DNA of 64,000 nucleotides from Selaginella moellendorffii. Lineage: Eukaryota > Plantae > Lycopodiophyta. The first letter of the stretch is position 1, and every line of letters begins with the position of its first letter. Made by a program: the position numbers and the translations under genes. Below the pieces are notes generated by a model, which saw nothing but the letters and a program-made list of their open reading frames with translations, did no database searches and was not told the DNA's origin. The DNA is taken from positions 633,207-697,206 of the forward strand of contig NW_003314333.1 in NCBI RefSeq assembly GCF_000143415.4, given 5' to 3'. Shown piece after piece: positions 6,461 to 62,195 of the stretch.

Positions 6461-7672
6461 TTTGTTTCTTGATCATCCTTGGTATAGAACTGCTAGAACT
6501 TCTCATTGATCATAAAAGCTACTAGTTTCCAGAGTGAATCTTATGGATGAATTCTACACAGCCCAAAGGGCATCACTAGAAACTCAATGCTTCCATACTT
6601 TGTTTGATAAGTTGTCTTCTCGACATCTTCTTCTACTACTTTGATCTAGTAGTATTTTGACCTTACATCAATCCTCGATAAGTATTTCACTTTTCCCAAC
6701 ATATCAAATAAGTCCTCAATCCTTGATAAAGGGTACTTATTCTTGTTTATATATTTGTTGAGCAACTCATAGTCTATACACATGCACATAAATCCATTTT
6801 TCTTTGTTACAAATAACATCAGTGCTTTATATAATGACTTGCTCAACTTAAGATACCATTTATCCACCAACTCCTCAAATTGGCACTTGAGCTCCTCAAG
6901 TTCCTTTTAATTCAACTGATAGGGGGATGAACCACTGCTTTAACACCCTCGACCAGCATTCTATTGGTCGTATAAGGGGTAATCCTGCCGGTAGTTCCTT
7001 CGGTATGGTATTTTGAAATTGGTTTAACACCTGCTGGATCACTAAAGGTATTTTTTTTGTTCCCATCTTTTTATCACTCCCCACTAAGAGTAAATACAAA
7101 AATGCAACCTTAGTTCTTTTAATGAGTTGTCCTTTCATGAACACTAGGTTTAAGCAAGAGTCTCTGGCCTTACATTGCTCTACCTTTAGATCTTGGGCTT
7201 CCACCTTTGATCATTTTCCCACCAAGTTTTTACCTTGTCCATGTAGGGCATAAATTAATTGAACCAATCCATCCCAAATATTATATCAAATTCTATCATA
7301 TCCAATATAGTGAAATCCATGTCTACTTTCCATGTCCCTACTTCAACTCTTCCTTGTTAAAATACTTCATCGGCACTTTGGCTATCTTGAACAAACTTTA
7401 TAGTCCTTGGCCAGCCATTGCACCGTTGTCTGGTTTGCCAAACTATATTTGTAACCACAAAATTATGCAAAACACTCGTGTTAATAAGGATCTTGATAAA
7501 GCTACTTTCGAGCTTCCCTCAGAGGGTTAGTAAATGTCGTAAATGACTCTTTACCAAAGTTGTTCATATAATGGGTAACCTTGAGTTAGGGACTAGATCA
7601 TGTACCTCAGTTTGAATTTCACCAGACTTAATAATCATATTGACTCTTGCCTTCTTCAGGTAAGGACATTCT

Positions 7673-9500
7673 TGTAAGCGACTAAATTTTCCATTCTACT
7701 TTAGTCATTTAACCACACCTCCGACCACTTGGAAGAGTCTCATTCACAACCTCCATAAGTCCAATTTAGAACTTGGGACTTGCTAGCCCCAAGAATGGCA
7801 TCCATGCCACTCAACCTTTGCACCTGGTCCAAATGCTCCACATGTCCGATCCCATGATTGACACTCAAAGGTACCACCGACATAGCAGCCTGTTACACTA
7901 AGGCCATGTCCAATCACCTTTACCGCACTGGTAGTCCAATACCACTTGCAACACAGTCTTGTCTCTTCAAGACTGGGCCAACCATCCGTGAATGGTCATC
8001 TCAGATCCACTCCTTAGCATCCTTAGGATGCCCACTGACAAGGGGAACAACCTTCCCCAATATCCCTCTGTCCGTCCCCACTAAGTCCCTTTTTGCCCTT
8101 GGCCGTGTTTGCCAACACTGCCACTGGGTCGAGGCCCACAAGCCTGACCACTAAGTCCCATGGTCCTCTGGGACTTCCTCACCACGTGACCGTATCCTTG
8201 GCCACCACACCAAAGAACTGCTCCTTTTCCTTTCCACAGTCTGGGACTTTGGGACAACACTTCAAAATACCGTGGCCTTACATAAGCCACCTGGGTACTC
8301 TCCCCGCCTTCCACCTTTGGGTGCTCTAGCCATGGGCTTAGAGCGAGGTTCCGTTGAGCCACGCTTGGTATCCAAGTAGGTAGTGCCACCCACACTTGGA
8401 CTGGGAGTATCGGCTAGTCGATCTCCCGGGGGAACTAGAGCTGGCTCTTGAACATTTCACCAAGCTACCTCGCTTGTCGGTCCGTATTCACTCTAGTCTT
8501 GGACTTCCCAGTGGTCAGTTCATCACCCAACACTGGATCTGGCCTTTCCTGGCCAAACTGGCTCCATTGCAGTCCTCCCCCTTACTATACTTTTGGAGCT
8601 CACCAAACCCCCCAGGGTCTGGGAGACGAATGCTTTGGGCTTTCACCCTCTCAGACTCGAACTCGGACTCGGACTTGGACTCGGACTAGGACTCGGACTC
8701 GGGCTCAAGCTCAGTCTCGGCCTCGGCCTTGGTCTCGGTCTCGGTCCCGGTCTCGGTCTCGACCTCGAACTCCATCTCGGGTCCTTCTCGGACTCCATCT
8801 TGGATTCCATCTCGGGTCCATCTCGGACTCCATCTCGGGCTCTGTCTCGGACTCCATCTCGGACTCCATCTCGGGTCCATCTCGGACTCCATCTCGGGTC
8901 CATCTCGGACTCCATCTCGGGTCCATCTCGGGTCCATCTCGGACTCCATCTCAGACTCCATCTCGGGTCCATCTCGGACTCCATCTCGGGTCCATCTCGA
9001 ACTCCATCTCGGGTCCATCTCGGACTCCATCTCGGGTCCATCTCAGACTCCATCTCAGACTCCATCTCGGACTCCATCTCAGACTCCGTCTCAGTCCATC
9101 TCGGACTCCATCTCGGGTCCATCTCGGACTCCATCTTGAGTCCATCTCGGACTCCATCTCGGGTCCATCTCAGACTCCATCTCAGACTCCGTCTCGGTCC
9201 ATCTTGAACTCCATCTCGGACTCCATCTCGGGTCCATCTCGGACTCCATCTCGGGTCCATCTCGAACACTTCCACGTGTCATGTGTTGGTCCTTTTTGGG
9301 TCCTTTTTTGGAGCCTTGCTTATTGGTTGCCTCGTGCTCGCTCCTTGAGCACTTTGTTGGGAGTTCCACTCCCGCTCTCGACCTTCCAAGTCGGAGCTTT
9401 TGATCCAAATGTGTTATGCTCATTTGGCTTTTGCTTCAGCCACTACCATGTGGCACCCTTTCCGGCTCCACTTTGGGGCCTAGGGATTTTGTGTCTCACA
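7673..9500 (-). repeat. 3' LTR of element B
   Basis: Direct repeat of 21044-22589. It carries a longer minisatellite. Confidence 0.9.
8650..9270. repeat. LTR-internal minisatellite (TCCATCTCGG-based ~11-12-nt units preceded by 6-nt CTCGGW units)
   Basis: Dozens of tandem units, with a shorter copy at ~22040-22355. Related arrays occur in the LTRs of C (~12400-12670, ~18810-19080) and A (~24570-24870). Confidence 0.9.
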
Positions 9501-11579
9501 ACTCCACCACCCATAGACGAAGTTCGATGTCCTCATCAAACGGTAAACCATTTTATAAAGTAACACCCGCATGTGTTACCATTTCCATCCTTGGCACCTA
9601 GCCTATATTTGTCAATGGTGTGATATTGAAGGCTCACTATGCCTTCTCCATATTCGTCAATGGTTTGACACCAAAAGCTCACCATGCCTTGCCTATCCTC
9701 TAAGGAGCATAGTCTTTCCAACATGAAGACTTATTCAACCACCTGGGGTGGTTTACTCCCTTTTATTGGTTTAGTTCTTGCTAAACCTATTAAAGACATC
9801 TTCTCTAACTCAATTCTCACTACTCCTACTCAAGTGGTCTCAGTTCCCATCGATATAACTTTTGCACTTTGGAACTTTTAATTTTGACTTCCTAAAGTCA
9901 ATTTCCTAGGTGTCTCCAACACCTTGCTTTGCACCTTTTGTGCAACTCCGCTTCCCCATCCTAGGAAGTTCTCTACTCAAGGGCACCATCATCCTCTTTT
10001 CTATTTTGTGCCACCATTGGCACTATGTTCCCATTATCATTATTTATGCCACGACCCTACCCTTTGGCTACTTTGCCGCTCCTCACTTGGAGCTTTTATT
10101 TCGCCAAATTGGAGCACTTGGGAATCTATCCTTGGAAGTCCACTTCCCTTCCCACAATCCGTTAGCACCCAACATGTTAGTGTTCTCTGCCTAACTTTGC
10201 CATTTGGTTTCTTTCCCATGATTCCCATGGCTCTTTTCTTAGCCACTAGTCTTTTGCTCCTATCCTTGATTGTTACACCTAACAACATTGGATCACTACC
10301 TCCATTCTTGAGGTATCCTTTTGATTCTATAGCAAAGATTTTGCTTTGCCAAGTCCAAAGGGTGTTCACCCTTAGTACGTTTCTTTAACATTTCCTGTTG
10401 TGGGCTCTATCCACGGCCCAATTTTTGAGACCCTCCTTGGATCTTTTATAAGGACTACTTTCCTCAAACTTACTATGCCATAGCAGTGACATAGCTCATT
10501 TCCTATAGGTGCTCTTTCCACTTGGTCATCTTGACCAAGCCACACCATTATCAATAGTTCAAATCAACACTTTGAACTAGGAATCATATCCCTTAACCTA
10601 AACAAAGACCTTATCCTTGTTTAGCCACAAGATCACCTAGTGATCTCATCTTGACCCCTTAATAAGTCTACCAATAGAGACTAGATCTTCCAGACCCTTC
10701 TAAGTTGTTGACTATGACCCCGGGGGCATCCCCCACACTTGGCAGTGTGCCCAAGCCAGCCCTTCTGACCAAGGATCCATAGCAACTGAGACTGAGTGTC
10801 CCCATCTCATTCACCACGTCCTTGGTGCCCTTTGCACTAAAGTGTTCAAGTTAGATATGCCGAGCTTTCACTCTAAGCAATCTAACCGTGTATCACGACT
10901 CTGGGGCATCCCCCGCTTGGCAGTGTGCCCAAGCCAATGTCCTCGACTCTCCACGCCGGTGCACCAACTTATAGTTAAAGTGCGCTATAGATCACAGCTT
11001 AGGAGCCTAGTTCCCCCGCACTGCCAAGTCCTCTCACTTGACAAGTCTATGATCATGCATGGACTCCTCCATGTTCGGCCCCATGGGCCACCCTTTTTGA
11101 AGTTAGCACCTTCAACTAGGGTATTTGTTCCCCCGACTTGCCACTCTCGCTTGGCAAGTCCTTCGACCACTATAACATGGTTTCTGCATAAGCGTGAAAG
11201 TCCTTGACCATCGACTTTCATTCAAAGCCTTCTTTTTGAACACTCAGGAACTACTTCCCTAACCTTGATAGCCTTGCCTCATGGCAAGCTTCAAGACCAC
11301 GTTTCTGCTGTCCCACTTTGATTTCGCGCGTTCCATGAACCATTTACACTTGGCCTTTCTAGGTACTAAGCTACCTAGAATCGTCTTTGGGAACTTTGAA
11401 GGAACTTTGTCCCTTAGCTTGCTAAGGCCTCCCTTTACATAAGCTTTCTAGTTGCCATATAGTCTAATATGGACAACTCCATATTTTAGACTCTCCATGG
11501 CATCACAGTTGCTAGCAACAACACCCTCGAGCCCCCACTTGATTCTCCACTCCCAGTTAGCATAACCAACCTTGGTTAT

Positions 11580-12762
11580 TGTAAGCCACAAATTTTTCCT
11601 TTCCAATTTGCCAGCTTACCTCGTCTATCCGACCAACTCTGCCTTGGCTTGTGCTAAGTTCCCTCGCCAAGGTTCTCGCCTATGGTACCAACTCCTACTT
11701 GGTCCTACTTGGTTTTAGCTACTCACTGCACGAGCAATGGAGTGTTAGCCATCCATCTACGGATTCCCAAATCTCTCCCAATCCCCCTCCCCGGGTTAGA
11801 CTGGACTTAAGGTTCGGCTACACTCCCCGCAGGCACAAGCAGCCAAGCACACCAAGCCTCCAGATTCCTAACACCCCTTGGTACCACAAGACTTGATCAT
11901 GGGACCCTCTAAATCCCAAGTCTTGGGTGCAGCACTTGCTTCGGGACGTCGGGGCGAAACACCGTGGCCTAACGGCCCGGTATGAGTACCTCTACCCCCC
12001 CTCTTCCATCCCGAAGGGAAGGCCCAAGCCCCCGGAAGGGCGAGGACCAATGAGCCACAAGGTACTCAAGTGGGGCACCACTCCACCTGAGCCGGGAGCA
12101 CCGCAGTCGGTTTCCCTTTCGGGAGTGGGAGCTGCTCTTGAGCACTTCCTTGGATGGCCCCTCCGGCACCAGCCAAGTCCATGCTCACTCCCACCCAAGG
12201 CCCCTCGGTCCCAGTCTCAACCTCAAGTCGGTTTGGAAGCCCAACTGGAGAGTCCCTTCAAAACTGGTTCCTGGACCTCACTATCCCTACTATACTTTTG
12301 GAACCCCCTGCAGCCCCCCCCCCCCCCCCCCCCCCCCTGGGAGACGCACGCTTTGGGCTTTCACCCCTTGACCCATATTAGTATTTGGACTTAGTCTCTG
12401 GCTCGATCTCGGACCCAATTTCGGATCCGACTTCGGATTCGGTCTCGGACTCGATCTCGGACTCGATCTCGGACCCGATCTCGGACCCGACCTCAGACTC
12501 GACCTCGGACTCGGTCTCGGACCCGATTTCGGATCTCGGACTCCGTCTCGAACTCGGTCTCGAACTCGGACTCGAACTCGGACTCGAACTCGGTCCCCGA
12601 GTTGGTCTCGGACTCGATTCCGGACTCTATCTCGAACTTGGTCTTAGAGTCGGTCTTGGACTCGATCCTCGACTTGGTCCCATCCGATGAACTCTTTGTC
12701 ATTTCTGTCAAGCTTTTGGGGATCCTTTAGCCTACGACATCTCGGGGAGTCGGTTCCTTACA
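11580..12762 (-). repeat. 3' LTR of element C
   Basis: Direct repeat of 17997-19173. Confidence 0.95.
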
Positions 12763-13547
12763 ACTCTACCACCCATAGAAGAAGTTCGATGCCCACATCG
12801 AACGTCTTGTTTTATCCTATGACTTGTTGACCATGTCTCCGGGGGCATCCCCCCACTTAGCGGTGTGCCTAAGTTAGCCTCCCCGGCCAAGAGCCCATGA
12901 CAACGGAATATAGGTGTCCCTATACTCCTCACCTCACCACGCCCTAGTATGGGGTCGGGACTTGAACCCAGCCTTGCTTTACTAGGGGGTTGGGACTCGA
13001 ACCCAACCTCCGTAGAATACGTCTACGGATTCGACATCCCCGCGGGGAGTCGGGCGTAGTGCCCTACGCCTGGTCGACCTATCCAACCCATGCTAATTAG
13101 CTTACCTTTGGCACGCCTTCGGGTCCCAACATATGCCATTTGCTCAACTTTGCAAATTGATATTTTTAATTGAATTTTGCATAAGTACATAGAGTTCTGC
13201 CTTGCAGAAATTTCTCCACTAGATCTCGCGCGTTCGCTAGGTTCTCCTCCGGTTCCCATGTTGCTTCGCAGTGTGGAAATCCTTTCCACTTCACATGGAA
13301 CTCTCTCACCTCGTGTCCTTGTCGCTTGCTCTTGCGCGCATTGAGGATGGCCTCGACTTCGTATTCCTCTTCCCCTTGGATAACCTCAGGTAAAGGTCTC
13401 ACTTGGTCCTTGCGAAGCGGATCCTCAAAGTACGGCTTGAGTAAGTTCACGTAGAACACTGGGTGCATCTTCCCCATCTCTCGAGGAAGTCGGAGTCGGT
13501 AAGCCATTTTACCGATTCGTGCCTCAATCTCGTAAGGCCCCGCGAAC

Positions 13548-13599
13548 CTGCTTAAGGAACTCAAGATCAATTCATTTACAGGAATACATGCATCTTTAC
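13548..13599 (-). other. Spliceosomal intron (52 nt) in the integrase GPY/F region of element C
   Basis: AAAG|GTAAAG...TAAGCAG|GTTC. Removal joins ORF 13596..13931 to ORF 13166..13570 as KLTQRFAGPYEI. Confidence 0.85.
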
Positions 13600-14017
13600 C
13601 TTTGGGTCAACTTTCGGCTGATCCCACTTGGTAGTCTGAGGTTCTTGGTGTTCAGCCACACCTTCTCCCCAGCTTGGAACTCTACATCCCGACGCTTCTG
13701 GTTCGCGTATTTGGTTTGCCTTTGTTGAGCCCGTTCCAAGGAATCCCTCACTAGATTCCAAATGTTGAGTCTTTCCGCCGTGAATGCCTCCACTGCGGGC
13801 AACTCTCCATGATACTCGGCCACGCCGAGTTCCACAGGACCTTCAATAGCTCGCCCATTGATGACTTCCCATGGACTCACCCCGATACTCGAATGTGGTG
13901 AGTTGTTATAACACATTTCCGCAAGTCCCAAATGACTTACCCAATCAGTCTGGTCTCCCGAGACATAGCATCACAAATAATCCTCCAGCTGCCTATTCAC
14001 CCTTTCCGTTTGTCCGT

Positions 14018-14063
14018 CTGTCAAGAAGTGTTAGTGCCAACAACTTGACTTAATACCCCATAC
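14018..14063 (-). other. Spliceosomal intron (46 nt) in the integrase core of element C
   Basis: ACAG|GTATGG...CTAAC...TTGACAG|ACGG. Removal restores YHPQTDGQTERVN. Confidence 0.9.
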
Positions 14064-16689
14064 CTGTCTGTGGGTGATAGGCTGTGCTGAATTTCAACTT
14101 GGTGTGATACTGTTCCAGGAGAGTCCTCCAGAACCTACTAGTGAAGATCTTATCTTGATCTGAGATGATCTCTTCCGGTCTTCCCCGCACTCGAACCACT
14201 TGTTCGAAGAACAGCTTTGCCACACCTTCCGCATCCACCTCCGTTGTGGTGGGTATGAAGTGTGCCATTTTCGAAAATTGGTCCACCACCACGAATATCG
14301 CATCAAACCCCTCGCTTGGGAGGAGTCCCGTGATGAAGTCCATCGTAAGACATTTCCACGGGCGATCTGGAATTGGGATGCTTTGCAACAAGCCCCCACT
14401 AGCCTTAGTCACGGCTTTTACCTGCTGACATGTTGGACATGTCTTTACATAGTCTTGGACGTCCTTAGCCATATCTGGCCAATGGTACTTCCTTTTGAGT
14501 AAGCCCATCATCTTGGGCACTCCACCGTGTCCCGCAAGAGGTCCGTCATGACACTCTTCTAAGGCCACCTTCCTTAGTTCCCCTTCTGGAATATACACCC
14601 TCGTTTGCTTGTAATAAATGAGTCCGTTGTGTTCCGCATAGCCCGTTTTCTCTTCCGTTGGCAGCTCACCTCTCTGGTGAGCTTCCCGCGCCTCTAGATT
14701 CCTCAGCAACACTTCCTGTGCTAGACCATCGTTCTCATATGCTGTCCGCACATCGTCCCAGAAGGTTGCTGTGGCGCTGGATATTGCCAACCTCAAGCTC
14801 GCTTTTCGACTTAGCGCATCCGCCACGATGTTGCTCTTCCCAGGCTTGTACAGAATTTCGCAATCAAACTCGGCCAAGGCATTGGCCCACCGACCTTGTT
14901 TCCCTCTTAGGTCGGGCTGTGACAAGAAGTGTTTCGTTGCCACATTGTCCGTGTAAACCTTGAAGTGTCTCCCAAGGTAGTGCCGCCACTCCTTGAGCGC
15001 CTTGACCACCGCAAACAATTCCTTCTCGTGGGCAGGCCACTTCCGTTGAGCCTTGTCCAGCTTCTTCGAGAAGAACGCTACCGGATGGTTGTCTTGCTTC
15101 AAAACTGCGCCCAACGCAAAGTCCGAAGCATCCGTTTCTACCTCAAAGTCCTTACCAAAGTCCGGTAATGCCAATACGGGAGCCTTCCTCAACTTCCCCT
15201 TGAGGTGGACGAATGCCGCCTCGCATTCCGCTGTCCACACCATCTTCCCTTTTCCTGTTTGGTCCGTTAAGGGCAGGGCTACTCTCGAATAGTGTCTGAT
15301 AAACTTTCGATAGTAGTTGCATAGCCCCAGGAATGCCCTCAACTCGTGTACATTGGATGGTCGCTCCCATTCCTGGATCGCTTGGACCTTCTCCGGGTCC
15401 ACCTTGAGCCCATCCTGGCCCACCACATGCCCGAGAAACTTTACCTCTTGTTGAGCAAAGTCACATTTGCTCTCTTTAGCATACAGCTTGTGTTCCCTTA
15501 GTTTCTCAAACACCTTCGCCAAGTGTTCGGCATGCTCCTCTAGCGTCTCGCTATAGATCAGGATGTCGTCGATATAGACGACCACAAAGTGATCCAGATA
15601 GGGTACAAAGATGTGGTTCATTAGCGCCAAAAACGTTGCCGGCGCATTGCATAGCCCGAAGGGCATCACCAGAAACTCAAAGCTCCCATACCTCGTTTGA
15701 CAGGTTGTCTTCTTGACATCTTCCTCGGCTACCCTGATCTGGTAGTATCCTGACCTTAGGTCAATCCTTGAGAAGTATTTTGCCTTTCCCAACCTATCGA
15801 ACAGGTCCTCAATCCTGGGCAAAGGGTACTTGTTCTTCTTTGTATACTTGTTGAGCAACTGGTAGTCTATGCACATGCGCATAGATCCATCTTTCTTCTT
15901 CACAAATAACACCGGCGCCCCATACGGCGACTTGCTCAACCTAACATACCCTTTGTCCACCAACTCCTCTAGTTGGCACTTGAGCTCCTTGAGTTCTTTT
16001 TCGTTCAAACGATAAGGGGGACGAACCACTGCCTCAGCACCCTCGACCAGCTCAATCTTATGTTCTATCGGTCGTGCTGGGGGTAGCCCCGCCGGTAGCT
16101 CCTCCAGCATGGTATCCTGGAATTGGTCCAACACCCGCTGGATCACTAAAGGTACTTCTTCCATTCCTGTCTTTTTGTCACTCTTCACCGAAAGTAAGCA
16201 CAAAAAGGCCGCCTTAGTTCCTTTAGTGAGTTGTCCTCTCGTGGACACCAGGTTTAAGCAGGAATCTTTGGCCTTGCTTTGCCCTACCTTTAAATCTTGG
16301 GCCTCCACCCTAGATCTTCTTCCTTGGGCATTCGCCAGTACCACAAGGTTTCTACCTTGTCCATGCAGGGCTACCACGAATCAATTGAACCAGTCCATTC
16401 CGAAGATCACGTCAAATCCCGCCATGTCCAACACGGTGAAATCCATGTCCACCTTCCAAGTCTCCACTTCGACTCTCGCTTGTCGAAGTACCTCATCGGT
16501 GCTTTGGCTACCTTGAACAAACTCTATAGTCCTTGGTTTGCCTAGCCGCTGCACCGTTAGTCCGGCTTGCCGGACTATGTTTGCAGCTACAAAATTATCC
16601 AAAGCACCCGTGTCAATAAGGATTTTAATAAAGCTACCTCCGAGCTTCCCTCGGAGGGCTAGTAGATGTCGCGAATGACTCTCTACCAA

Positions 16690-17937
16690 AGTTGCTCATG
16701 TAATGAGTAACTTTGAGTTAGGGACTGGATCACATACCTCCGTTTGGACTTCACCCGATTTGATGGCCATATTGGCTCTGGCCTTCTTCGGGTAAGGACA
16801 TTACCTCGAGAAGTGTCCCGCTTCACCGCAGTTGTAGCATACGTTGTTTCCCACGCTGCTATACGACTTGACCTTCTTATCCGTGGGTTTGTCTCTTTTC
16901 GCTTGACTCCCCCACGTACTCGCTCGCTGGCCACCGGATTTGCCTTTCCGGAACCCCGAGGACTCATTCTTAGAGAAACTCCTCTTGAATTTCCCTCTGC
17001 TAAACGTTCCCCTTGGTTTGGCCCCTTTGCTAAACGTGGATCCCGACCCCGTCGTGTTCCTTTTTCACAGGTTATCGTTGAAATGCACCTTGATGGCTGC
17101 ATCCAACGCTTCCTTGTAGTTGGTCGGGTTCCACCGCATTACTTCGCCGCGAGCCCAGGTTTGCAAACCTGATATGAAGGCATGGAATGCATCCATATCC
17201 CCCATGTCCGTGACAAGTATCCTCTTTGCCATAAACCCATTCACATACTCCTGAATGGTTCCGGTCTGCTTCAGCCTACTCAGCTCATCCCTTAGGTGCA
17301 GAGTAGCATTCGAAGGAACGTAAGTTGCGCGGATCCTCGCCTTCATCATTTCCCAAGTGGCCACCGGTCCTTCGTTGGCCTCCGTTGTTCTCCACCAAGA
17401 CTTGGCGTTATCTGCCAAGTATGGTTTTGCATATGGGACCTTCTCCGAGCTCGGTAATCGCAACGCTCGGAAGTAGTCCTCCATATCGTAAAACCAATCC
17501 TCCACCACCTTATAGTCGTTCACTCCCTTGAAGACCGGTGGGGGCTTCGGTTTGTACTTGGGAACTGCCTGGGGGACTGATTCCACTTCGGTTTGTTCGA
17601 CCTTGTCTGGTTTTGCCTCAGTCCCTACCGAAGGGTCTGCACCTTCTGCGCTGCCAGCATCCGCAGTCTTTCGCTTTTTCTTTCGCTTCTCGTCACGCTT
17701 TAGCTTGCGTACGAGAGTCTCTAGCAGGGCATTGGTCTGTGCCAATTGCCCTTCTAGAACGTCCAATCGAGCCTTGGATGACCGAACCTCACCACCGGAC
17801 TCCTGTTTGGAAGTTGCCTCACTGGAGTCCTCCTCATGCAACGATTCCTCATCCATAGCCTCTTGTTCGACCGGAGGCTCCAGCTCTGGAGGAGGTTCTG
17901 TTTCCGCCTGGGTTCGCTTACGTCCTGCCCTTGCCAT
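16690..17937 (-). pseudogene. gag: gag of element C
   Basis: 290-aa ORF with retrotransposon gag motifs (WFYDMEDYF, AKSWW, LKQTGTIQEYV). The same frame continues past a TGA to the zinc knuckle CYNCGEAGHFSR*CP. Confidence 0.9.
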
Positions 17938-17981
17938 CTCCCAGCAATCCGCCTCTATCCTTCGCTAGAACTGAGGAAGAG

Positions 17982-17993
17982 GCTCCGATACCA
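17982..17993 (-). promoter_or_regulatory. Primer-binding site (tRNA-iMet type) of element C
   Basis: TGGTATCGGAGC, 3 nt from the 5' LTR, one mismatch to the canonical TGGTATCAGAGC. The same variant is present in B and at 61400. Confidence 0.85.
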
Positions 17994-17996
17994 AAT

Positions 17997-19173
17997 TGTA
18001 AGCCACAAATTTTTCCTTTCCAATTTGCCAGCTTACCTCGTCTATCCGACCAACTCTGCCTTGGCTTGTGCTAAGTTCCCTCGCCAAGGTTCTCACCTAT
18101 GGTACCAGCTCCTACTTGGTCCTACTTGGTTTCAGCTACTCACTACACGAGCAACGGAGTGTTAGCCATCCATCTACGGATTCCCAAATCTCTCCCAATC
18201 CCCCTCCCCGGGTTAGACTGGACTTAAGGTTCGGCTACACTCCCCGCAGGCACAAGCAGCCAAGCACACCAAGCCTCCAGATTCCTAACACCCCTTGGTA
18301 CCACAAGACTTGATCATGGGACCCTCTAAATCCCAAGTTTTGGGTGTAGCACTTGCTTCGGGACGTCGGGGCGAAACACCGTGGCCTAACGGCCCAGTAT
18401 GGGTACCTCTACCCCCCCTCTTCCATCCCGAAGGGAAGGCCCAAGCCCCCAGAAGGGCGAGGACCAATGAGCCACAAGGTACTCAAGTGGGGCACCACTT
18501 CACCTGAGCCGGGAGCACTGCAGTCGGTTTCCCTTTCGGGAATGGGAGCTGCTCTTGAGCACTTCCTTGGATGGCCCCTCCGGCACCAGCCAAGTCCATG
18601 CTCACTCCCACCCAAGGCCCTCGGTCCCAGTCTCAACCTCAAGTCGGTTTGGAAGCCCAACTGGAGAGTCCCTTCAAAACTGGTTCCTGGACCTCACTAT
18701 TCCTACTATACTTTTGGAACCCCCTGCAGCCCCCCCCCCCCCCCCCCTTGGGAGACGCACGCTTTGGGCTTTCACCCCTTGACCCGTATTAGTATTTGGA
18801 CTTAGTCTCTGGCTCAATCTCGGACCCGATTTCGGATCCAACTTCGGATTCGGTCTCGGACTCGATCTCGGACTCGATCTCGGACCCGATCTCGGACCCG
18901 ACCTTGGACCCGACCTCGGACTCGACCTCGGACTCGGTCTCGGACCCGATTTCGGATCTCGGACTCCGTCTCGAACTCGGTCTCGAACTCGGACTCGAAC
19001 TCGGTCCCCGAGTCGGTCTCGGACTCGATTCCGGACTCTATCTCGAACTCGGTCCTAGAGTCGGTCTTGGACTCGATCCTCGACTTGGTCCCATCCGATA
19101 AACTCTTTGTCATTTCGGTCAAGCTTTTGGGGATCCTTTAGCCTACGACATCTCGGGGAGTCGGTTCCTTACA
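17997..19173 (-). repeat. 5' LTR of element C
   Basis: Direct repeat of 11580-12762, adjacent to the PBS. Confidence 0.95.
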
Positions 19174-21043
19174 GTTATGCCCTTCGATTCCTATGGTTTG
19201 GTTCTATCCCCTTACTACTTGATTTTTGGCTTCACACCTTTCCTTCGGTTATTCGCCTCCAAACTAGGAGGATAGTTTTGCACTTTCTACCATGCCTTAG
19301 GAAGTATTCTTGGGGATGAACCTACCCGACAGCCTAGGGAGTGGTTCCTCAATCCAGGTATGCTCACCTTATAATCCCACACACCGGGATTAACGTTGTT
19401 GTTTATGGGCCCTTACATGCCCATCACTAACCTTGCCAAAATTCCATTTTTGGCTTTGTCCAATTCGGGTAAACAGTCTTCTCCTGTCTCCGCAACCTTG
19501 GACATTTGGATAGCACCTTCTATCCATCATTCACGAGGAACTTAGTCCCTTAGGCCTTATCTATTGCCCTTGCAACACTAAACACCACCTCCTGGTGTTC
19601 CAGAGTGTTTGGGTGTCCCAATGATGGTCTCCTTGATAATGAGCATTTCCTTTTATGACATTGACTCACTATATCGCAACATAAGCAATTTATCCCCTAT
19701 AAGGGTATATCTAACTTCCTTATGCCATTTAGAAGTCTTGGGTAGCTACCTTCTACCCATTTAACCAATTATGTTTATACCTCTTGCTTAGTTGCCCCAT
19801 AGTTGTCAAGTCTTACAACTCATTGCTTAGTGCTTCCACACCTCCATCATTATCTGGGTCACCACACTCCAACTGCATGCCTTTCAGCTTAGGCCATGCC
19901 ATTTCCGCTTTCATTGGGATTCCCTTAGCAAGGGGTTTTTATGAACCCACCATCATAACCTCAAGGTATCACACCTTGGCACATTTGGTGTCTCCACACC
20001 ATCGGCTCCACGAGCCTACCTCTATGACACTTTTTACTTGTGTTTAGGTCTTTGCCAAGTCTAAAGTAGTCATTTTTCATGCCAACTATCAGTTAGCACT
20101 GCACCATAGTGCACACACAACTCTATGCCAAAGTTGCTTTCTTTTTGGGGAACACCTTTCCCACAACTTTAGCATAACACATTCTGCCATCGATGAGATA
20201 CCCTCTATTCTCATCCTTAGATCCTATGATCCCCCCCATCCTTCGTGGGGTACAACACACCTTAGTCCAAATGCTTCTATCAGTCCTTTAGGACGATTCC
20301 TTGACTCTACTTGAATCATCTAGCAGTTTTGGACTTGGTTAATCCACAGATTCGTAAGGTCCTACTTGTGAGGCACCAACTCACTAGAATACAACTTCTT
20401 GCATTCATGTCCTACTCATAAGGACTATTTTCACAAGTGTTACTCTGACACTTGATTTTGTTCTCTGGGGGCAACCTCTGCCCCTTAGGACTACTTGTCC
20501 ATGTGATGAGAATACCAACTCATCCTCTAAGTACATCCCCAACTCCTTGGGTTGTTCCAGCATTCATCAAGGGTAGCCTCGGCTACCATTTCAAGGACTT
20601 GTGTCCTCTTCTGTATTTAACCTCCCATGGTCATCAATTCCAATCTCAAAGTTATGAGCACTAGCCTCAACTATATGAGGTAATCTTGTGACTCCTTTAT
20701 TGTTTTGGAGTCTACATCTTTCCCGTGATCCCAACTATAGTTATTTACCACAACTATGTTAGCCCGTTTGCTGCGTGAAACACTCATCTGGATCACATCC
20801 TCAGCTCTCTGAGGAAACCTTATACTGTTCCCAAGATCCCAAAGTCATTCCATTATTGGCCCTTTTCTATCCACCACATCGTGCCCAAGTTCACGCATGA
20901 ACTTGAGTGGAGAGCCATGTCCTCTCGACATGCTACTCCTCAAGGATAGGCCCACTCCTAGGACCTTCCGATGCCAGCATCAATGGTGATATACTTAAGC
21001 ACCAATAAAAGTCGGACTAAGGAACTTGGCTCCGATACCAAGT

Positions 21044-22589
21044 TATAAGCGACTAAATTTTCCATTCTACTTTAGTCATTTAACCACACCTCCGACCACT
21101 TGGAAGAGTCTCATTCACAACCTCCATAAGTCCAATTTAGAACTTGGGACTTGCTAGCCCCAAGAATGGCATCCATGCCACTCAACCTTTGCACCTGGTC
21201 CAAATGCTCCACATGTCCGATCCCATGATTGACACTCAAAGGTACCACCGACATAGCAGCCTGTTACACTAAGGCCATGTCCAATCACCTTTACCGCACT
21301 GGTAGTCTAATACCACTTGCAACACAGTCTTGTCTCTTCAAGACTGGGCCAACCATCCGTGAATGGTCATCTCAGATCCACTCCTTAGCATCCTTAGGAT
21401 GCCCACTGACAAGGGGAACAACCTTCCCCAATATCCCTCTGTCCGTCCCCACTAAGTCCCTTTTTGCCCTTGGCCGTGTTTGCCAACACTGCCACTGGGT
21501 CGAGGCCCACAAGCCTGACCACTAAGTCCCATGGTCCTCTGGGACTTCCTCACCACGTGACCGTATCCTTGGCCACCACACCAAAGAACTGCTCCTTTTC
21601 CTTTCCACAGTCTGGGACTTTGGGACAACACTTCAGAATACCGTGGCCTTACATAAGCCACCTGGGTACTCTCCCCGCCTTCCACCTTTGGGTGCTCTAG
21701 CCATGGGCTTAGAGCGAGGTTCCGTTGAGCCACGCTTGGTATCCAAGTAGGTAGTGCCACCCACACTTGGACTGGGAGTATCGGCTAGTCGATCTCCCGG
21801 GGGAACTAGAGCTGGCTCTTGAACATTTCACCAAGCTACCTCGCTTGTCGGTCCGTATTCACTCTAGTCTTGGACTTCCCAGTGGTCAGTTCATCACCCA
21901 ACACTGGATCTGGCCTTCCTGGGCCAAACTGGCCTTTCCTGGCCAAACTGGCTCCATTGCAGTCCTCCCCCTTACTATACTTTTGGAGCTCACCAAACCC
22001 CCCAGGGTCTGGGAGACGAACACTTTGGGCTTTCACCCTCTCAGACTCGAACTCAGACTCGGACTTGGACTCGGACTCAGGCTCGGGCTCGGTCTCGGCC
22101 TCGATCTCGGTCCCGGTCTCGGTCTCGGTCTCGGTCCCGGTCTCGGTCTCGACCTCGGACTCCATCTCGGGTCCTTCTCGGACTCCATCTCGGATTCCAT
22201 CTCGGGTCCATCTCAGACTCCATCTCGGACTCTGTCTCGGTCTATCTCGAACTCCATCTCAAACTCCATCTCGGGTCCATCTCGGACTCCATCTCGAACT
22301 CTGTCTCGGTCCATCTCGGACTCCATCTTGGACTCTATCTCGGGTCCATCTCGGACACTTCCATGTGTCATGTGTTAGTCCTTTTTGGGTCCCTTTTTGG
22401 AGCCTTGCTTATTGGTTGCCTCATGCTCGCTCCTTGAGCACTTTGTTGGGAGTTCCACTCCCGCTCTCGACCTTCCAAGTCGGAGCTTTTGGTCCAAACG
22501 TGTTACGCTCGTTTGGCTTTCGCTTCGGCCACTACCACATGGCACCCTTTTCGGCTCCACTTTGGGGCCTAGGGATTTTGTGTCTCACA
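21044..22589 (-). repeat. 5' LTR of element B
   Basis: Direct repeat of 7673-9500, adjacent to the PBS. Confidence 0.9.
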
Positions 22590-23791
22590 ATTCTCTTGAA
22601 AAGTGTCCTGCTTCACTGCAGTTGAAACATATGTTATTTCTTACACTACTAACAAACTTAGCCTTCGTATCAATGGGTTTGTCTTTTTTCGCTTGCCTTC
22701 ATTTGTACTCCCCCACATACTTGCTCACTGGCGACTAGATCTGCCTTTCCAAAACCCTAAGGATTCATTTTTATAAAACAAATTCCTAAATTTCCCTTTG
22801 CCATATATCCCCTTGGTTTGGCTCATTTGTTAAATGTAGATTCTGACCCAGTTGTGTTCCCCTTTCACAAATTAGCATTGAAATGCACCTTAATAATTGT
22901 ATCCAATGTTTCTTTGTAGTTAGTTGGGTTCCAATGCATCATCTCGCCTCGAACCCAAATCTGTAAGCCTGATATGAAGGCATAGAATACATCCATGTTG
23001 CCCATATCTGTGACAAGAATCCTCTTCGCCATGAATGGATTCACATATTCTTGAATGGTTCTTATCTACTTCAGCCTACTTAACTCATTTATTAGGTGTA
23101 GAGTAGCATTTAGGGAATATAAATTTCATGGATCCATGCCTTCATCATTTCTCAAATGGTCATTAGCCCTTCGTTAGCCTCTGTTGTTCTCCACCAACAC
23201 TTAGCATTATCAGTCAAGTATGGTTTTGCATATAGGACCTTCTTCGAGCTAAGTAATTGCAACACTTAGAATCTTCTATATCGTAAAACTAGTCCTCCAC
23301 CACTTTATAGTCATTTACTCCCTTGAAGACTGGTAAGGGCTTTGGTTTGTAGTTGGGAACTATTCGAGGGACTAATTCCACTTCAGTTTGTTTGACCTTA
23401 TTCGGTTCTGCCTCAGTCCCTGCCAAAGGGTCCACGCCTTTTACACTAGTAGCATCTGAAGTCTTTTGCCTTTTCCTCTATTTTTTATCAAGCTTTAGCT
23501 TGTGTACGAGGGTCTCCAATAGCACATTAGTCTGTGCCAATTGTCCTTTTAGAATGTCCAATTGAACCTTGGATGACTGAATCTCACCACTAAACTTCTA
23601 TTTGGAAGTTTCCTCACTGGAGTTCTCCTCTTGCAAAGATTCTTCATCCATAACTTCTTGTTCTACTGGAGGATCCAGCTCTAGAGGAGGTTCCATCTCT
23701 ACTTTAGCTCTTTTATGCCTTACCTTAGCCATCTTCAAGTAATCTGCCTCTATCTTTCGTTAGAATTAAGGAAAAGGCTCCAATACCAAAT

Positions 23792-24953
23792 TGTAATTTA
23801 CAAATTTTTCCTTTCTAATTTATTAGTTTACCTTGTATATTCGACCACCACTACCTTAGCCTTAGTTAAGTTCTTTTGCCAAAGTTCCCACCTATTATAC
23901 TAGTTTCTATTTGGTTCTACTTGGTTTTAACTACTCACTACACAAGCAATAAAGTGTTAACCATCCATCCATAGATTCCTAATTTTTCTCCCAATCCCCC
24001 TCTTTGGGTTAGACTAAAGTTTGGCTATACTCCTTGCAAGCACACCAAGCCTTTAAATTCCTAGCATCTCTTGGTACAATAAAACTTGATTATGGGACTC
24101 TCTGAATCCCAAGCTTTATGTGCATCATTTACTTTGGGACCCCAGGGGGAAACACCATCACCTAATGGCCCGGTATGAGTACCCTTACCCCCCCCACTTC
24201 CATCCTGAAGGGAAGGTCCAGGCCGCTAGGAAGGAGCAAGGACCAATGAGCCATAAGGTACTCAAGTGGGGCACCACTCTACATGAGTTGGGAGCACTAT
24301 AGTCAATTTCCCTTCTAGGAGTGAGAGTTCTTTTTGAGCACTTCTTTGGATAACCCCTCTGGCAGCACTTGAATCCATATTCACTCCCACCTGAGGCCCC
24401 TAAGCCCCAATTTCAACCTCAAGTTAGTTTAAAAGCACCACTAAAGAGTTCCTTCAAAACTAATTCTTAAACCTCACTATCCTTTCTATACTTTTGGAAC
24501 CTTTTGCAACTGCCCCTTCCTTGTGGGATGATTGCTTTGGGCTTTCACCCCATGACCTATATTAGTATTTGGACTCGATCTTAGACTCGATCTCAAACTT
24601 AACCTTGAACTCAGTCTCAAACTCAATCTCGGACTTGATCTTGGACCTGACGTCAGACTCAATCTCGGACTCGATCTTGGACTCAGTTTTGGTCTCAGAC
24701 TCGATCTTGGATCTCAGACTTGGTCTTAAACTCGGTCTCAAACTTGGTCTCGGAGTCAGTCTCAGACTCAATCTCAGACACAGTTTCAAACTCAGTCTCG
24801 AACTCGATCTCGGACTCGATTTCAAACTCGGTCTTGAACTCAATCTCGGAGTCGGTCTTCGACTCAATCTCAAACTTAGTCTAATTTAATGAACTTTTTA
24901 TCATTCCGGTCATGGTTTCAGGGATCCTTTAGCCTAGAGTTGGTTTTCTTACA
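23792..24953 (-). repeat. 5' LTR of element A (CpG-depleted homolog of the element C LTR)
   Basis: Colinear with 17997-19173, with many C>T/G>A changes. Confidence 0.85.
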
Positions 24954-28814: not shown

Positions 28815-30843
28815 TCAATAAACATCGGAAGAAGAACTTTTGTGAGTGTGGGGACGCTTGTTTGCGTCCAAATCTGTGTCGTCAATGCTCCTCTTGCACT
28901 TTTGGTCCGAGGGGTTGCTGGTGTTCACTGGACCATCCAGACAGCCAACAAGTCTCATTACGAAGTGAGCAAGCTCTCAAAACCAAGCGGCCTTACTTGC
29001 GGGCTCCGCAGAGACACGCTCCACTTGAGAACTGTATGGCGCGATGTGGTGCGTCGCGGAAATCACAGAACCGAGGAGGTCTTCAATCAGTTCATACCTG
29101 CGAAGCAAACAACGATCGTCATTCAGAACAAACATGAAACGAGCAAACATGAAAACTTACAGTCGGCAGCAGAGTCTATCGGTGAGCGCGGTGACACTGA
29201 GAACCTTAAACCTTACTCCGCTTATGTCTTGTTCCAGCACCTCTTCGGGCATCTCAATAAGCATCGACAGCCTCTCAACCTGTTCTTCAAACTGCTGCTG
29301 CTGGTCTTCGAACAGCACCTGGTTCATTGCGTTCTGCTCCGGGGAGATGTCGTCCTTGAAGAGATCGTTGCCGAACATAAAGAATGCGAACGGATACGAG
29401 CACGAGACGGCACGCCGGGCCTTGTAAAGCATCTGGAGCCCAGACTTGAGCCATGTGTAGTCCTTGACAATCAAGTCGCGTTGTTCCAACCTTTCAATCT
29501 TCTCCTGTACAAGTTGTTCTTGCTTCTCTTCGAACTTGAGAGAATCCATATGCGCTCTCCACAGTTTGTAATAATGAAGGTATCTCGACAGCGTGCGTTT
29601 TGCATCGGCTGCTCTTGTCTCGGCTTCCTCTTTGTAGCGACCACAACTATGCCCCACAATGTGCTCGTAGCTATGAGCAGCACCGGTGGCAGTACCACAT
29701 TTCCAGCTACACGAACAAGGGGAAAAGTTAGTTTCCATCCCGCGAAGGCGAAGAAAAAATAAACACAACTTACCAGAAATGCTGGCCACAGCGGCAAGTC
29801 ATGAGGTTGCAACCTTCGTTCTTCTCGACTGGCTTACTGCATTTCGGGCATGATTTAGTGTGGCTGGTGATCCAGTGATTCGTCTCGGAGTCGTCTTTAC
29901 ACTTGCGCTCCCACAGCTCCCACAAGCTGCATGACAGCGGCGAGTGCGGCAGCTTCAAGCAGTTGAAGCAAAACTGGTGTGAGCAAAGGCACTCGATCTC
30001 CCAGTACGGCCCCCCCTCCACCTTGATGGCATTTCCGCAGTGTGGAACGCTCGGGCACCACTTGACTGCTGCATTGTCTTCGATGTAGGACTCGAGCAAG
30101 CACCTCTCATACCGGGCCAAAGCCTCGCTGTTCCTGAATGCTAAGACGGCACGAACCTTCTCCTCGTCACAAATCGTTGCACACTTGAAAGCCATGCACT
30201 TCAACTTCCGGCTCTCGCCCTCCATGATCTTGACGGTAAAGTTCTCGAGCCAGCCTGCCCTTCCGAGTTAGATCGAAGGAAAAGCAAAGAAAGAGAAAAG
30301 ATAGCAAAGGAAGACCACTTACAATCGTTGCAAAAGGCATGGCCGCAATCCATTTGAGTGGCATCGGCCTGTGGAACATCGTCGAAACAAATGCCGCAAG
30401 TGACAGTGCTTGGCAGCGGCTGTGAGGCGGGCTGGTTTTCAGCCAAAGCTGGCAAACCAACCCTGCGAAAGACCGCATCTCTCCCAGCCTCAGCCATGTA
30501 GCTAAACAAAACCTCGACGTTCCATCGGTAGTGGATGAGAAGAGCCCTGGCGTGCTGGATTTTCACACCAAACATGTCCATCACTCTTTGCAGATCTTGT
30601 TGCTGCCACGGCAAAGATGCGATGAGGAAGCGCGCTGCAAAGAATGGATCCCTTACCTGAGCAAGCGCTAGCGATTCGGCGGTGATCACCTGCCGTAACA
30701 CGCAATCCCGTGAATGAGGACAATCTTTTGGAGGCGCTTACCCTATGCGACGATCCGCGCAGCTCAGCGGGATCGTCATCGCCGCACTCGAGCTCGCTCT
30801 CCGCGTAGATCCCCGAATTGTCTTCGTCCTCGTCGCTCATCAT
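28815..30843 (-). CDS. ARI: ARIADNE-family RBR E3 ubiquitin ligase, multi-exon
   Basis: Acidic N-terminus, ARALLIHYRWNVE, RING1 (CGICF...CGHAFCNDC), IBR (WCPSVPHCGNAI...FCFNCLKLPHSPLSC), RING2 (CPKCSKPVEKNEGCNLMTCRCGQHF) and Ariadne domain (RYLHYY). The last exon is inferred. Confidence 0.92.
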
Positions 30844-31720: not shown

Positions 31721-32188
31721 ACTCATTTCGTTTGCAAGTTTGTTCAATCCCACACTTGTACGGAACGTGTTGCTTCTGCTTGAGTTTGTCTTGAATCGTA
31801 TATCCATTAAAGAGAGGTTCCAAACTCCCGGCTGATGCAGGCTCCATGAGCAAATCTAAAAGACTCAAGATAAGAGTTGAAAACTCTCTCAAACAGCAGC
31901 AAGCCTTCCACCACAAGTATCTCTTGCTCACTCGCCCCTATTGCCTCTTCTTCCCCAGCTTCTTCAGATCGACCAATCGTACTAATCCTCTCCAGCGCCA
32001 TAATCAAGCTCCCAAGAAACCAAGCGCCAAGGTGGAAAATCGAATCCTCCCATCTCGAACAAAACCAACAACATTGCCATAATCCTGCCAAAAAAGAGAG
32101 AGAATCAACGGTAGCTAAAAACAATTGCAGCCATAGCATTTTTCCTACTACTAAATTTTGCCCCCCTCCAGCGTGGCAATGCAGGTGT

Positions 32189-39576: not shown

Positions 39577-39655
39577 CGACGTGTACTCGGTTTCTTAGGA
39601 CAAGACTGTCAACTATAAAATTTCTCTAGAACCCTAAAAAATGTAGGGGATTTCC

Positions 39656-42685: not shown

Positions 42686-42963
42686 CTAGCTTGTTAACCT
42701 CGTTGACAATTCCTTTCTGTGCCTCCTCACTTAGAGCTGCCAAGAAGATCAACATTAATTTCCGTTGTGTAAATAGTTAGGTGTTAATTGTAATACATCT
42801 TGTGATTCTGGACTGTGGTATTGTTGCTGGAAACAAGAATGGTAAATCTTTGCAAACTGGCCAGAACGCCTTAAACCCTAGGTTGGCCTACCTTGCGGTT
42901 TGTTAAATAATAGTATTAATTCTGTGTTGTAAGCTATTCGAGAAGTTAGGTTATCTTGGCGCA

Positions 42964-57700: not shown

Positions 57701-58284
57701 CGGCTCGAGTCAGGTGAGCGCAGTGAAGGTGAGCACTGCGTTTCTGGATTTCAAAACTAACTACTTCAGACAGATGTATGCTAATTTTTTTGGTGGGAGA
57801 ATTGCCCGCGTGCCGCTTATGACAAGGTGAGTGGTTCAGTCTCATGAGCGGATTTGCAGTTGGCAAAAGGTGTCCAAGCTGAGTTTCTTTTGAAGCTGGC
57901 GGCAAATGGATGAAGGCTTTGAGATCAAAAGAAGCTTCTTCACAAATTTGAAGAAATTGAGCTTAATTTATTGCCTTGAGCGTTTTGATGGAGTTATAAA
58001 ATTCTACCTTGAGCTTTTCACTGTGGAGTACATGTTTGAACTTTTGCAAAGATGATTTCTCAAAAATGTGGATTGAGACGTACATCTGCTTTGTGGGTCA
58101 TTGGTGCAGGACAAACGAGATGATGACGGTGTGAGGATTCCACCATTTTGTCACTGACATTGGAGTGCCCAAGGGAGTTAATAATATCGATAATCTGTAT
58201 GGTGATCAGCAGTGCCTATGCGCCTGAAATATTTGAGCACATTAGTATGAGCGAGGTATAAGGTTCTAGGGTTAGGGTCTCTCA

Positions 58285-61915: not shown

Positions 61916-61966
61916 AGTAGTATCACACTAAATTGAAATTCAGCACAAACTATCACCAATAAAAAT

Positions 61967-62013
61967 GTATTAAGTATTGAGTTAAGTTATATAGTAATAA
62001 CCAGTCTTGATAG
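61967..62013 (+). other. Intron remnant (47 nt) at the same position as 14018-14063
   Basis: GTATTAAGTATTGAGTTAAGTT...TAACCAGTCTTGATAG|ATGGACAAACAGAAAGG aligns to intron 1 of element C and its downstream exon. Confidence 0.85.
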
Positions 62014-62195
62014 ATGGACAAACAGAAAGGGTGAATAGACAATTAAAGGATTATTTATGATATTATGTCTCTGAAGACTAAATAGACTTGGTAAATTATT
62101 TAAGATTTGCAAAACTATGCTATAACAATTCACCCAATTTGGTATTCATAAACTATCAAAAGCACAGAGACATAGAGTATTAATTTGGGGAGAAG

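Follow-up and report, generated by a model that had tools for sequence, protein, structure and literature searches.

The main finding of this analysis concerns a 7,594-bp Ty3/gypsy element that lies at 11580-19173 on the minus strand of the window, a stretch of 64,000 nucleotides of Selaginella moellendorffii, and whose integrase is interrupted by two inserts that our results support as spliceosomal introns. The element is a dead copy of a chromovirus, likely a member of the SM1-Galahad family as described in the available part of Novikov et al. (2012; PMC3350952), and the reading that we hold to be the more probable is that this family makes its integrase from spliced RNA and transposes from RNA in which the introns are retained.

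Assignment to Ty3/gypsy follows from an LTR pair with TG..CA ends, a target site duplication (TSD), a primer-binding site and the Pfam order gag-PR-RT-RH-INT, and assignment to the chromoviruses from a chromodomain (PF00385) at the integrase C-terminus, which is joined to the integrase only after splicing. The 13-nt primer-binding site is presumably of the tRNA-Met type. The features are as follows, with the minus-strand element read from its 5' end:

17997..19173, minus strand: 5' LTR of 1,177 bp with TG..CA ends, a poly-G tract of 18 and tandem repeats of 12 bp
17982..17994, minus strand: primer-binding site directly after the 5' LTR, tRNA-Met type as presumed above and as given in the available part of PMC3350952
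16699..17937, minus strand: gag from its first ATG, Retrotrans_gag (1.7e-13) and zf-CCHC (7.6e-6), two in-frame stops within and a third (16696-98) immediately after
16581..16737, minus strand: uncertain candidate for a third splice, 157 nt across the protease start, GTATGT donor, acceptor not AG in this copy
16384..16695, minus strand: aspartic protease, RVP_2 (7.9e-15)
14064..16380, minus strand: pol exon 1, with RT, RNase H, integrase zinc finger and integrase core with both catalytic Asp
14063-14018, minus strand: intron 1, 46 nt with GT-AG ends, phase 1, separating the second Asp from the catalytic Glu
13600..14017, minus strand: integrase exon 2, catalytic Glu helix, one stop here that is absent from most DNA contigs
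13599-13548, minus strand: intron 2, 52 nt, GT-AG, phase 2, immediately upstream of the GPY motif
13166..13547, minus strand: integrase exon 3, GPY motif, SH3_Tf2-1 (2.2e-14), chromodomain (2.5e-16), stop
11580..12762, minus strand: 3' LTR, 1,183 bp, poly-G tract of 24
11575..11579, no strand: TSD GTTAT, the same 5 bp on the other flank at 19174-19178
61919..62134, plus strand: decayed second family copy, 76% nucleotide identity, keeps intron 1 at the same site and ends before intron 2
61967-62013, plus strand: intron 1 of the second copy, 47 nt, GT..AG

The initial annotation had described a TSD-flanked, two-LTR gypsy element whose pol is broken twice, and this description stands at the coordinates given here. 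To it we add that the copy is dead, with five in-frame stops (17065-67, 16801-03, 16696-98, 16381-83 and 13971-73). The LTRs share 1,140 matching positions and differ by 25 mismatches, 24 of them transitions (K2P 0.022); fungal RIP as the cause of this transition bias was rejected, the host being Selaginella. Since the LTRs are paired and the TSD is present, this intron-bearing copy arrived by retrotransposition.

Both inserts show what is expected of U2-type spliceosomal introns, that is, GT..AG ends, a branch-like motif and a gap-free frame restored by their removal. Insert 1 begins with GTATGG, ends with CAG and has a CTAAC-type branch motif at -17, and insert 2 begins with GTAAAG, ends with CAG and has a branch-like motif at -23. 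Their description as AT-rich GT...AG inserts of 46 and 52 nt, neither length divisible by 3, proved correct, the GC content being 41% and 35%, respectively, against 51% in the exons; exon windows of equal length were as GC-poor in 3.9% of cases for insert 1 and in 0% for insert 2. Exactly one register among the 6 equivalent ones of insert 1, and one among the 5 of insert 2, gives GT..AG, and the chance of this at both inserts is about 7e-4 by arithmetic from dinucleotide frequencies. Once insert 1 is removed the D,D(35)E spacing is 35 residues, and with one X placed at each break the protein aligned without gaps with 127/128 and 107/110 spanning homologs. The earlier claim that the inserts have the size of host introns holds in part, since the 52-nt insert equals the lower end of the six ARI1 introns measured (52-69 nt), whereas the 46-nt insert falls below all six. 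An Rfam scan of 11500-19300 gave no match at the gathering score, for self-splicing or any other Rfam RNA. At 60% ungapped identity neither insert matches the window anywhere else, so nothing points to an introner source. Repeats of 5 and 4 nt flank the inserts, and were set aside as a clue to their origin because they overlap the splice consensus.

Read without splicing, the element gives a Gag-PR-RT-RH frame of 1,295 codons that ends inside intron 1, upstream of the catalytic Glu, as the initial annotation had predicted for Pol truncated in the integrase core; with both introns removed the frame has 1,557 codons and the chromodomain at its end. Unspliced RNA would thus yield a product without the catalytic Glu, and double splicing the full-length one.

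Evidence that the introns are removed from RNA comes from a single contig and one inferred read, unreplicated. The contig (record 9 of run X15, 2,500 nt) lacks exactly both inserts, since the element pieces 14064-15816, 13598-14017 and 13219-13545 are contiguous in it as 1-1753, 1754-2173 and 2174-2500, so that the contig omits 46 and 52 nt, in registers compatible with GT-AG. Run X15 was guessed to be RNA, and it fits an RNA library in having 3 element contigs against 61,174 in the DNA run X1. Contigs of intron-retaining RNA did not turn up in X15. Across the protease the assembly yielded a single form, record 10, in which 157 nt are missing and which would have only Gag as its product. A single read of 150 nt from X23, a raw RNA run, is below the detection threshold and probably spliced across intron 1, as its 84 and 66 letters fall in adjacent bins, yet by arithmetic it covers 13947, 13973 and 14105. 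With about 12% of each run covered, X23 yielded 12 reads and X24 yielded 3; no joint in these raw runs exceeded the threshold, and the X24 reads could not be assigned to a junction. Of the spliced junctions that the initial annotation proposed to seek in RNA, both are seen in the contig and one probably in the X23 read, and none as a joint above threshold in the raw runs. Together with the gap-free alignments and the splice motifs, the contig supports the annotation's view that the inserts are spliceosomal.

In DNA, the presence of the introns throughout the family, also claimed earlier, is supported by the DNA contigs, by the diverged second copy and by the published consensus with its three-ORF break pattern. 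The contigs of run X1 keep the inserts (record 4 reads through intron 1 with 28 differences), insertion variants are located inside intron 1, and there was no drop of depth in the bins holding the introns. No joint was found at either intron among the best-supported 15 of 89, some joints being uncounted. Summed depth in X1 was 206-217k at intron 1 versus 686-748k in its flanks and 267k-1.1M in the exon rows shown; because intron 1 lies below its flanks and below the lowest of these rows, an intronless minority may exist. Most genomic copies carry the introns, as seen here or already published. Family-level variants were synonymous in 6/6 cases in exon 2 and 11/12 in exon 1, where 34% is expected for random transitions; the sample was non-random, 39 of the 40 rows displayed from a total of 667, and exon 3 contributed no polymorphic row.

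In its available part, PMC3350952 describes SM1-Galahad as 7.5 kb long, with LTRs of more than 1 kb, poly-G of 11-25, a 13-bp tRNA-Met primer-binding site, a 3,885-bp ORF without chromodomain and downstream ORFs of 316 and 309 bp, the last with a group I chromodomain, and places it in the Galadriel clade. Our element agrees in host species, size, poly-G in the LTRs, the 13-bp primer-binding site and, exactly, in the ORFs of 3,885 and 309 bp; the middle ORF has 318 bp and the LTRs 1,177-1,183 bp, versus 316 bp and 1,076/1,146 bp, the match being one by description and not by consensus sequence. The published consensus was built from several copies, none intact among hundreds, and its frames are handled as three separate ORFs (PMC3350952, available part), which the intron reading joins. 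The integrase introns would explain this lack of intact copies. The terms "intron" and "splic" are absent (0 hits) from the body text and from the one supplement of that paper, as available.

With respect to mechanism, both introns would be removed from RNA, as in the one contig, and integrase would reach the particles on Gag-Pol translated from the spliced mRNA, while intron-retaining RNA would serve as the reverse transcription template for new copies. It is reasonable to suppose that unspliced RNA is selected to serve as the genome. By analogy one may speculate on a BARE1-like sorting, in which RNA that is capped and spliced would be translated and a separate unspliced pool would be packaged. 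A more elaborate scheme, which we regard as tentative and rather doubtful, has three RNAs from one LTR promoter region (the unspliced genome, a Gag-Pol mRNA without the integrase introns and an mRNA for Gag only, with its splice across the protease), a retrovirus-like programme acquired by intron gain, in which a packaging filter, based either on a signal within an intron or on a distinct start site, would bar spliced RNA so strictly that two 50-nt introns outlasted hundreds of retrotranspositions. No TATA or AATAAA was found by simple pattern in the 5' LTR, which leaves the idea of two start sites unsupported here.

Splicing has been described in other retroelements. In Ogre (Ty3/gypsy, Tat lineage) translation of the whole polyprotein requires splicing (PMC6317226), an intron retained in DNA being spliced from a subset of transcripts for downstream Pol, including integrase (PMC6317226, PMC12786077, PMC3735527); unlike Ogre, the present element is a chromovirus with two introns of 46-52 nt within the integrase, one of them inside the DDE triad. 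In BARE1/EVADE-type Ty1/copia elements the intron is likewise kept in DNA, and BARE1 has separate RNA pools for translation and packaging (PMC3735527, PMC5580714, PMC12786077). The candidate 157-nt skip would, as in these elements, place a stop directly after Gag; splicing abolishes Pol there, whereas removal of the integrase introns completes it here. Foamy virus also makes Pol with integrase from spliced and not genomic RNA, but its splice removes upstream sequence for a separate Pol and leaves the integrase motifs uninterrupted (PMC7828637). Penelope-like elements also retain introns after retrotransposition, but by a non-LTR mechanism, without DDE integrase and with the shared intron in the 5' UTR (PMC8557442). 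Conserved splicing of the BARE1/EVADE type was not observed in Arabidopsis Ty3/gypsy (PMC5580714), and a 2025 review considers plant LTR elements generally intron-free except Ogre and EVADE-type (PMC12786077). These comparisons rest on the available parts of the papers, as does the absence of integrase introns from PMC2864245, PMC5718144, PMC12477816, PMC7730604 and 10.1101/2024.04.02.587720. The initial annotation knew of no description of this arrangement, and in the literature searched we found no LTR element with introns inside the integrase; on the other hand, the family is already known and named, and Pol gated by splicing is known in Ogre and foamy virus. The intron reading is what is new.

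Other explanations have to be weighed against integrase from spliced RNA combined with transposition from retained RNA. One, which we consider unlikely, dispenses with active sorting: splicing would be slow or partial where transposition occurs, both RNAs would be packaged, and intronless daughters would be few or dead ends (e.g., poorly expressed or quickly silenced), so that intron-bearing copies dominate. An intron of 46 nt may splice inefficiently, and the incomplete X1 joint table and the low depth of intron 1 leave room for such daughters; but in X15 the spliced form alone was assembled, which points to splicing being efficient in that tissue, the 15 best-supported DNA joints include none from an intronless copy, and the 2012 survey, in its available part, had no intact copy. 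It is more improbable still that integrase is supplied in trans by one or a few intronless copies or by the uninterrupted sister SM2-Galahad, the X15 contig being the transcript of an intronless copy derived from once-spliced RNA. The contig alone does not distinguish splicing in the present from an intronless locus being transcribed, SM2-Galahad numbers hundreds of copies and has a single 4,731-bp ORF including the chromodomain (PMC3350952, available part), and the parasitism of BARE2 on BARE1 is a known precedent. The fully synonymous variants of exon 2 are, however, as expected under selection for a working integrase in intron-bearing lineages, and the splice ends are preserved in the 76%-identical copy. 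Even under supply in trans the inserts would be true introns, and the RNA bearing them must still escape splicing to be copied.

By far the least probable is that a decayed element acquired two ordinary DNA insertions whose GT..AG ends are due to chance, the X15 contig being a DNA variant or an assembly artefact. The copy in the window is indeed dead, X15 is a guessed RNA run, and short flanking repeats such as those found here can accompany insertions. Against this stand two exact skips within one contig, GT-AG at both sites with branch-like motifs, and the presence of the inserts in both the family consensus and a diverged copy.

An RNA intermediate is classically proven by the loss of introns. 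Where a family with hundreds of copies has held on to two integrase-core introns, copying would have to favor RNA that escaped splicing, and the standing question of how an LTR element chooses between genome RNA and mRNA becomes testable with the introns as natural markers, since each new cDNA or insertion reports the splicing state of its template. A caution also follows, as ORF-based annotation can label such intron-bearing families dead.

The introns were probably gained within this lineage, because SM2-Galahad and the scored relatives are uninterrupted, and with a sister family free of introns present in this genome, the gain should be datable. Protein searches returned no close family protein, spliced or unspliced (best identities of about 45%, 49% and 46% among matches covering most of the query), negatives that carry little weight. 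The relatives were scored in a metagenome set of 80 loci (57 clusters at 95%), 38-52% relatives of which none is a Selaginella family member; extra bases at site 1 were 0 in 60/61 scorable loci (19 unscorable), and the difference at site 2 was at most 6 bases in 43/44 (36 unscorable). In one of these loci, L026, an insert of 311 bases follows a few codons beyond site 2.

The element is a Ty3/gypsy retrotransposon of 7,594 bp on the minus strand (11580-19173), bordered by the TSD GTTAT, and its LTRs (1,183 and 1,177 bp) show 25 mismatches (24 transitions) over 1,165 aligned positions. At the LTR substitution rate of rice (1.3e-8), the K2P distance of 0.022 corresponds roughly to an insertion 0.8 My ago. 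Pfam searches revealed gag, zinc knuckle, protease, RT, RNase H and the integrase zinc finger and core, with the SH3 domain and chromodomain lying in a different frame. The gag-pol frame is unbroken from 17937 to the first integrase insert apart from four in-frame stops, and a fifth lies in exon 2, so that the window copy is dead. The element forms the innermost level of a three-level nest (6556-24936): it lies within an LTR element (LTRs at about 7673-9504 and 21043-22589, of a 12-bp-repeat type related to its own, no long retrotransposon ORF being seen between them), itself within a Galahad-like copy, 75-78% identical, that retains an LTR (23790-24936), gag, PR and part of RT and is truncated at 6556.

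The two GT..AG inserts described in the initial annotation were confirmed at 14063-14018 (46 nt) and 13599-13548 (52 nt). Each carries a branch-like motif, and their GC content is 41 and 35%, respectively, against 51% in the exons. The integrase, translated through with one X per break, was compared with 146 proteins, of which 142 matched; the alignment was gap-free within four residues in 127 of the 128 homologs spanning site 1 (HPQT-x-GQTE; 14 did not span it) and in 107 of the 110 spanning site 2 (KLTQ-x-FAGPY; 32 did not). Insert 1 cuts off the catalytic Glu from both Asp residues, and its removal restores the 35-residue spacing. Exactly one register per insert is GT..AG, among six equivalent ones for insert 1 and five for insert 2, an outcome expected by chance at both inserts with a probability of about 7e-4, as computed from dinucleotide frequencies. 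Unspliced, the ORF has 1,295 codons and terminates within intron 1; with both introns out it reaches 1,557 codons. The inserts are almost certainly real introns. Their supposed equality in size with host introns held only as a similarity, since the 46-nt insert is shorter than all six introns measured in the neighboring ARI1 gene, one exon of which is identical to Selaginella moellendorffii ARI1 over 157/157 aa (100%; next match 62%). Host genes in the window include:

28900-30843, minus strand: ARI1 (Ariadne) gene, introns of 52-69 nt (six measured)
31874-34138, plus strand: PPR gene

Related integrases mostly run through both positions. Among 80 metagenome loci (57 clusters; integrases 38-52% related), site 1 had no extra bases in 60 of 61 scorable loci and one extra base in the other, and 43 of 44 were within six bases at site 2; the remaining one (L026, about 950-1280), a gypsy integrase, carries 311 extra bases, inserted a few codons beyond site 2. 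A decayed, different gypsy element in the window (50778-54678, minus strand; gag, protease, RT and integrase) has no insert at site 1. Protein searches found no close family protein.

The family itself is already known. The text of PMC3350952 (Novikov et al., 2012) describes SM1-Galahad as a 7.5-kb element with LTRs above 1 kb containing poly-G and a 13-bp PBS, present in hundreds of copies about 95% alike, none intact, and with an ORF of 3,885 bp lacking the chromodomain followed downstream by ORFs of 316 and 309 bp. As the window element has ORFs of 3,885, 318 and 309 bp, both inserts are very likely part of the multi-copy consensus published there. The paper's "113 aa" does not tally with its own ORF length of 309 bp; counted from an upstream Met, the window copy gives 113. 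The sister family SM2-Galahad is described there with a single 4,731-bp ORF that includes the chromodomain, and intron gain in SM1 is therefore the simpler history. Neither the text nor the supplement of that paper, figures aside, mentions introns or splicing, and a full-text literature search found no LTR element with introns within the integrase; a mention may exist in subscription journals, in Repbase reports or in supplements to the genome paper, which lay beyond the reach of that search. The initial interpretation of a splicing-dependent chromovirus family is supported in part. The family has been published and the mechanism has analogues, but no published description of this intron architecture was found.

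Four of 24 listed sequencing runs were compared with the element. In X15, a 26-Mb contig set whose library type is RNA by guess, only three contigs matched; one 2,500-nt contig (record 9) aligns in three pieces that omit exactly 46 and 52 nt at sites 1 and 2, and none of the three covers either intron. About 12% of each of two raw RNA runs was sampled, giving 12 reads in X23 and three in X24, and in neither run did a joint pass the threshold. A single X23 read may be spliced at intron 1, because its 84 + 66 letters in two adjacent bins cover 13947, 13973 and 14105, which is impossible for 150 contiguous letters. Both junctions predicted initially are present in the presumed-RNA contig of X15, and the one at intron 1 possibly in this read, but neither as an above-threshold joint in X23 or X24.

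In DNA the introns appear mostly to persist. In the DNA run X1, 61,174 contigs match the element, and the bins that hold the introns show no fall in depth (949k and 824k; bin range 729k-1,190k). Insertion variants occur inside intron 1, and a 208-nt contig reads through it with 28 differences. No joint at either intron was present among the 15 best supported of 89 (lowest depth shown 197), but some joints were uncounted, and depth within intron 1 (206-217k) is under that of its flanks (686-748k) and of the lowest exon row shown (267k). A decayed second copy (61919-62134) has kept intron 1 in the corresponding position, with a length of 47 nt and GT..AG ends, and matches the element at 131/169 exon and 33/46 intron positions; this copy is split between integrase pieces by a small LTR-like element (61053-61915) with a tRNA-Met-type PBS near 61400. 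Most family members appear to bear introns like the window copy. Of 667 variant rows, the 40 listed were considered for selection; 39 were scored, and one lay outside the pol exons. Variants at <90% share were synonymous in 6/6 cases in exon 2 and 11/12 in exon 1, against an expectation of 34%, while near-fixed differences, likely private to the window copy, were synonymous in 10/21; no polymorphic row scored fell in exon 3. Purifying selection thus appears to act on exon 2.

Since most family copies appear to keep their introns, yet the integrase requires both removed and exon 2 looks constrained, we consider two RNA pools the simplest and a reasonably probable reading: spliced mRNA would encode complete Gag-Pol, including integrase and chromodomain, and intron-retaining RNA would serve as the genome for new copies. 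The window copy, TSD-flanked, with young LTRs and both introns, must itself have come from an RNA in which they were retained. Known elements offer precedents, BARE1 for sorting RNA into pools (PMC3735527; PMC5580714; PMC12786077) and Ogre (PMC6317226) and foamy virus (PMC7828637) for splice-dependent Pol. The two serious competing readings are leaky packaging, intronless daughters being dead ends, which we regard as rather unlikely, and provision of the integrase in trans, which seems somewhat less likely still.

One observation counts against the two-pool reading, because the sole X15 form assembled over the protease could not encode Pol. This contig (record 10) omits 157 nt across the protease start (16581-16737, minus strand). 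In the GT-initial register the skip begins at a GTATGT donor (16737), and the join would place a stop directly after Gag; the resulting Gag-only RNA would resemble the splicing reported in EVADE and BARE1 (PMC3735527; PMC5580714; PMC12786077). The implied acceptor has no AG in the window copy, and a diverged relative (about 7,400-7,670) keeps the donor GT and likewise lacks the acceptor AG. A possible third splice, the skip could be cryptic and specific to one copy, or could instead be a deletion; we put the odds at about even. A stop just before the protease (16696-16698, minus strand) is common to the window copy and the diverged relative (near 7565, 83% identical there), reflecting either CpG decay that occurred in parallel or, in a subfamily, a genuine stop of Gag.

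Elsewhere in the window, long plus-strand open frames of 325-454 aa (42907-45289 and 58276-60449) match no Pfam family beyond a weak NACHT match (0.0071). A 481-codon open frame at 39647-41089 (plus strand) carries an RtcB tRNA-ligase domain (4.4e-72), which is unusual in a land plant, and is possibly of bacterial or fungal origin.
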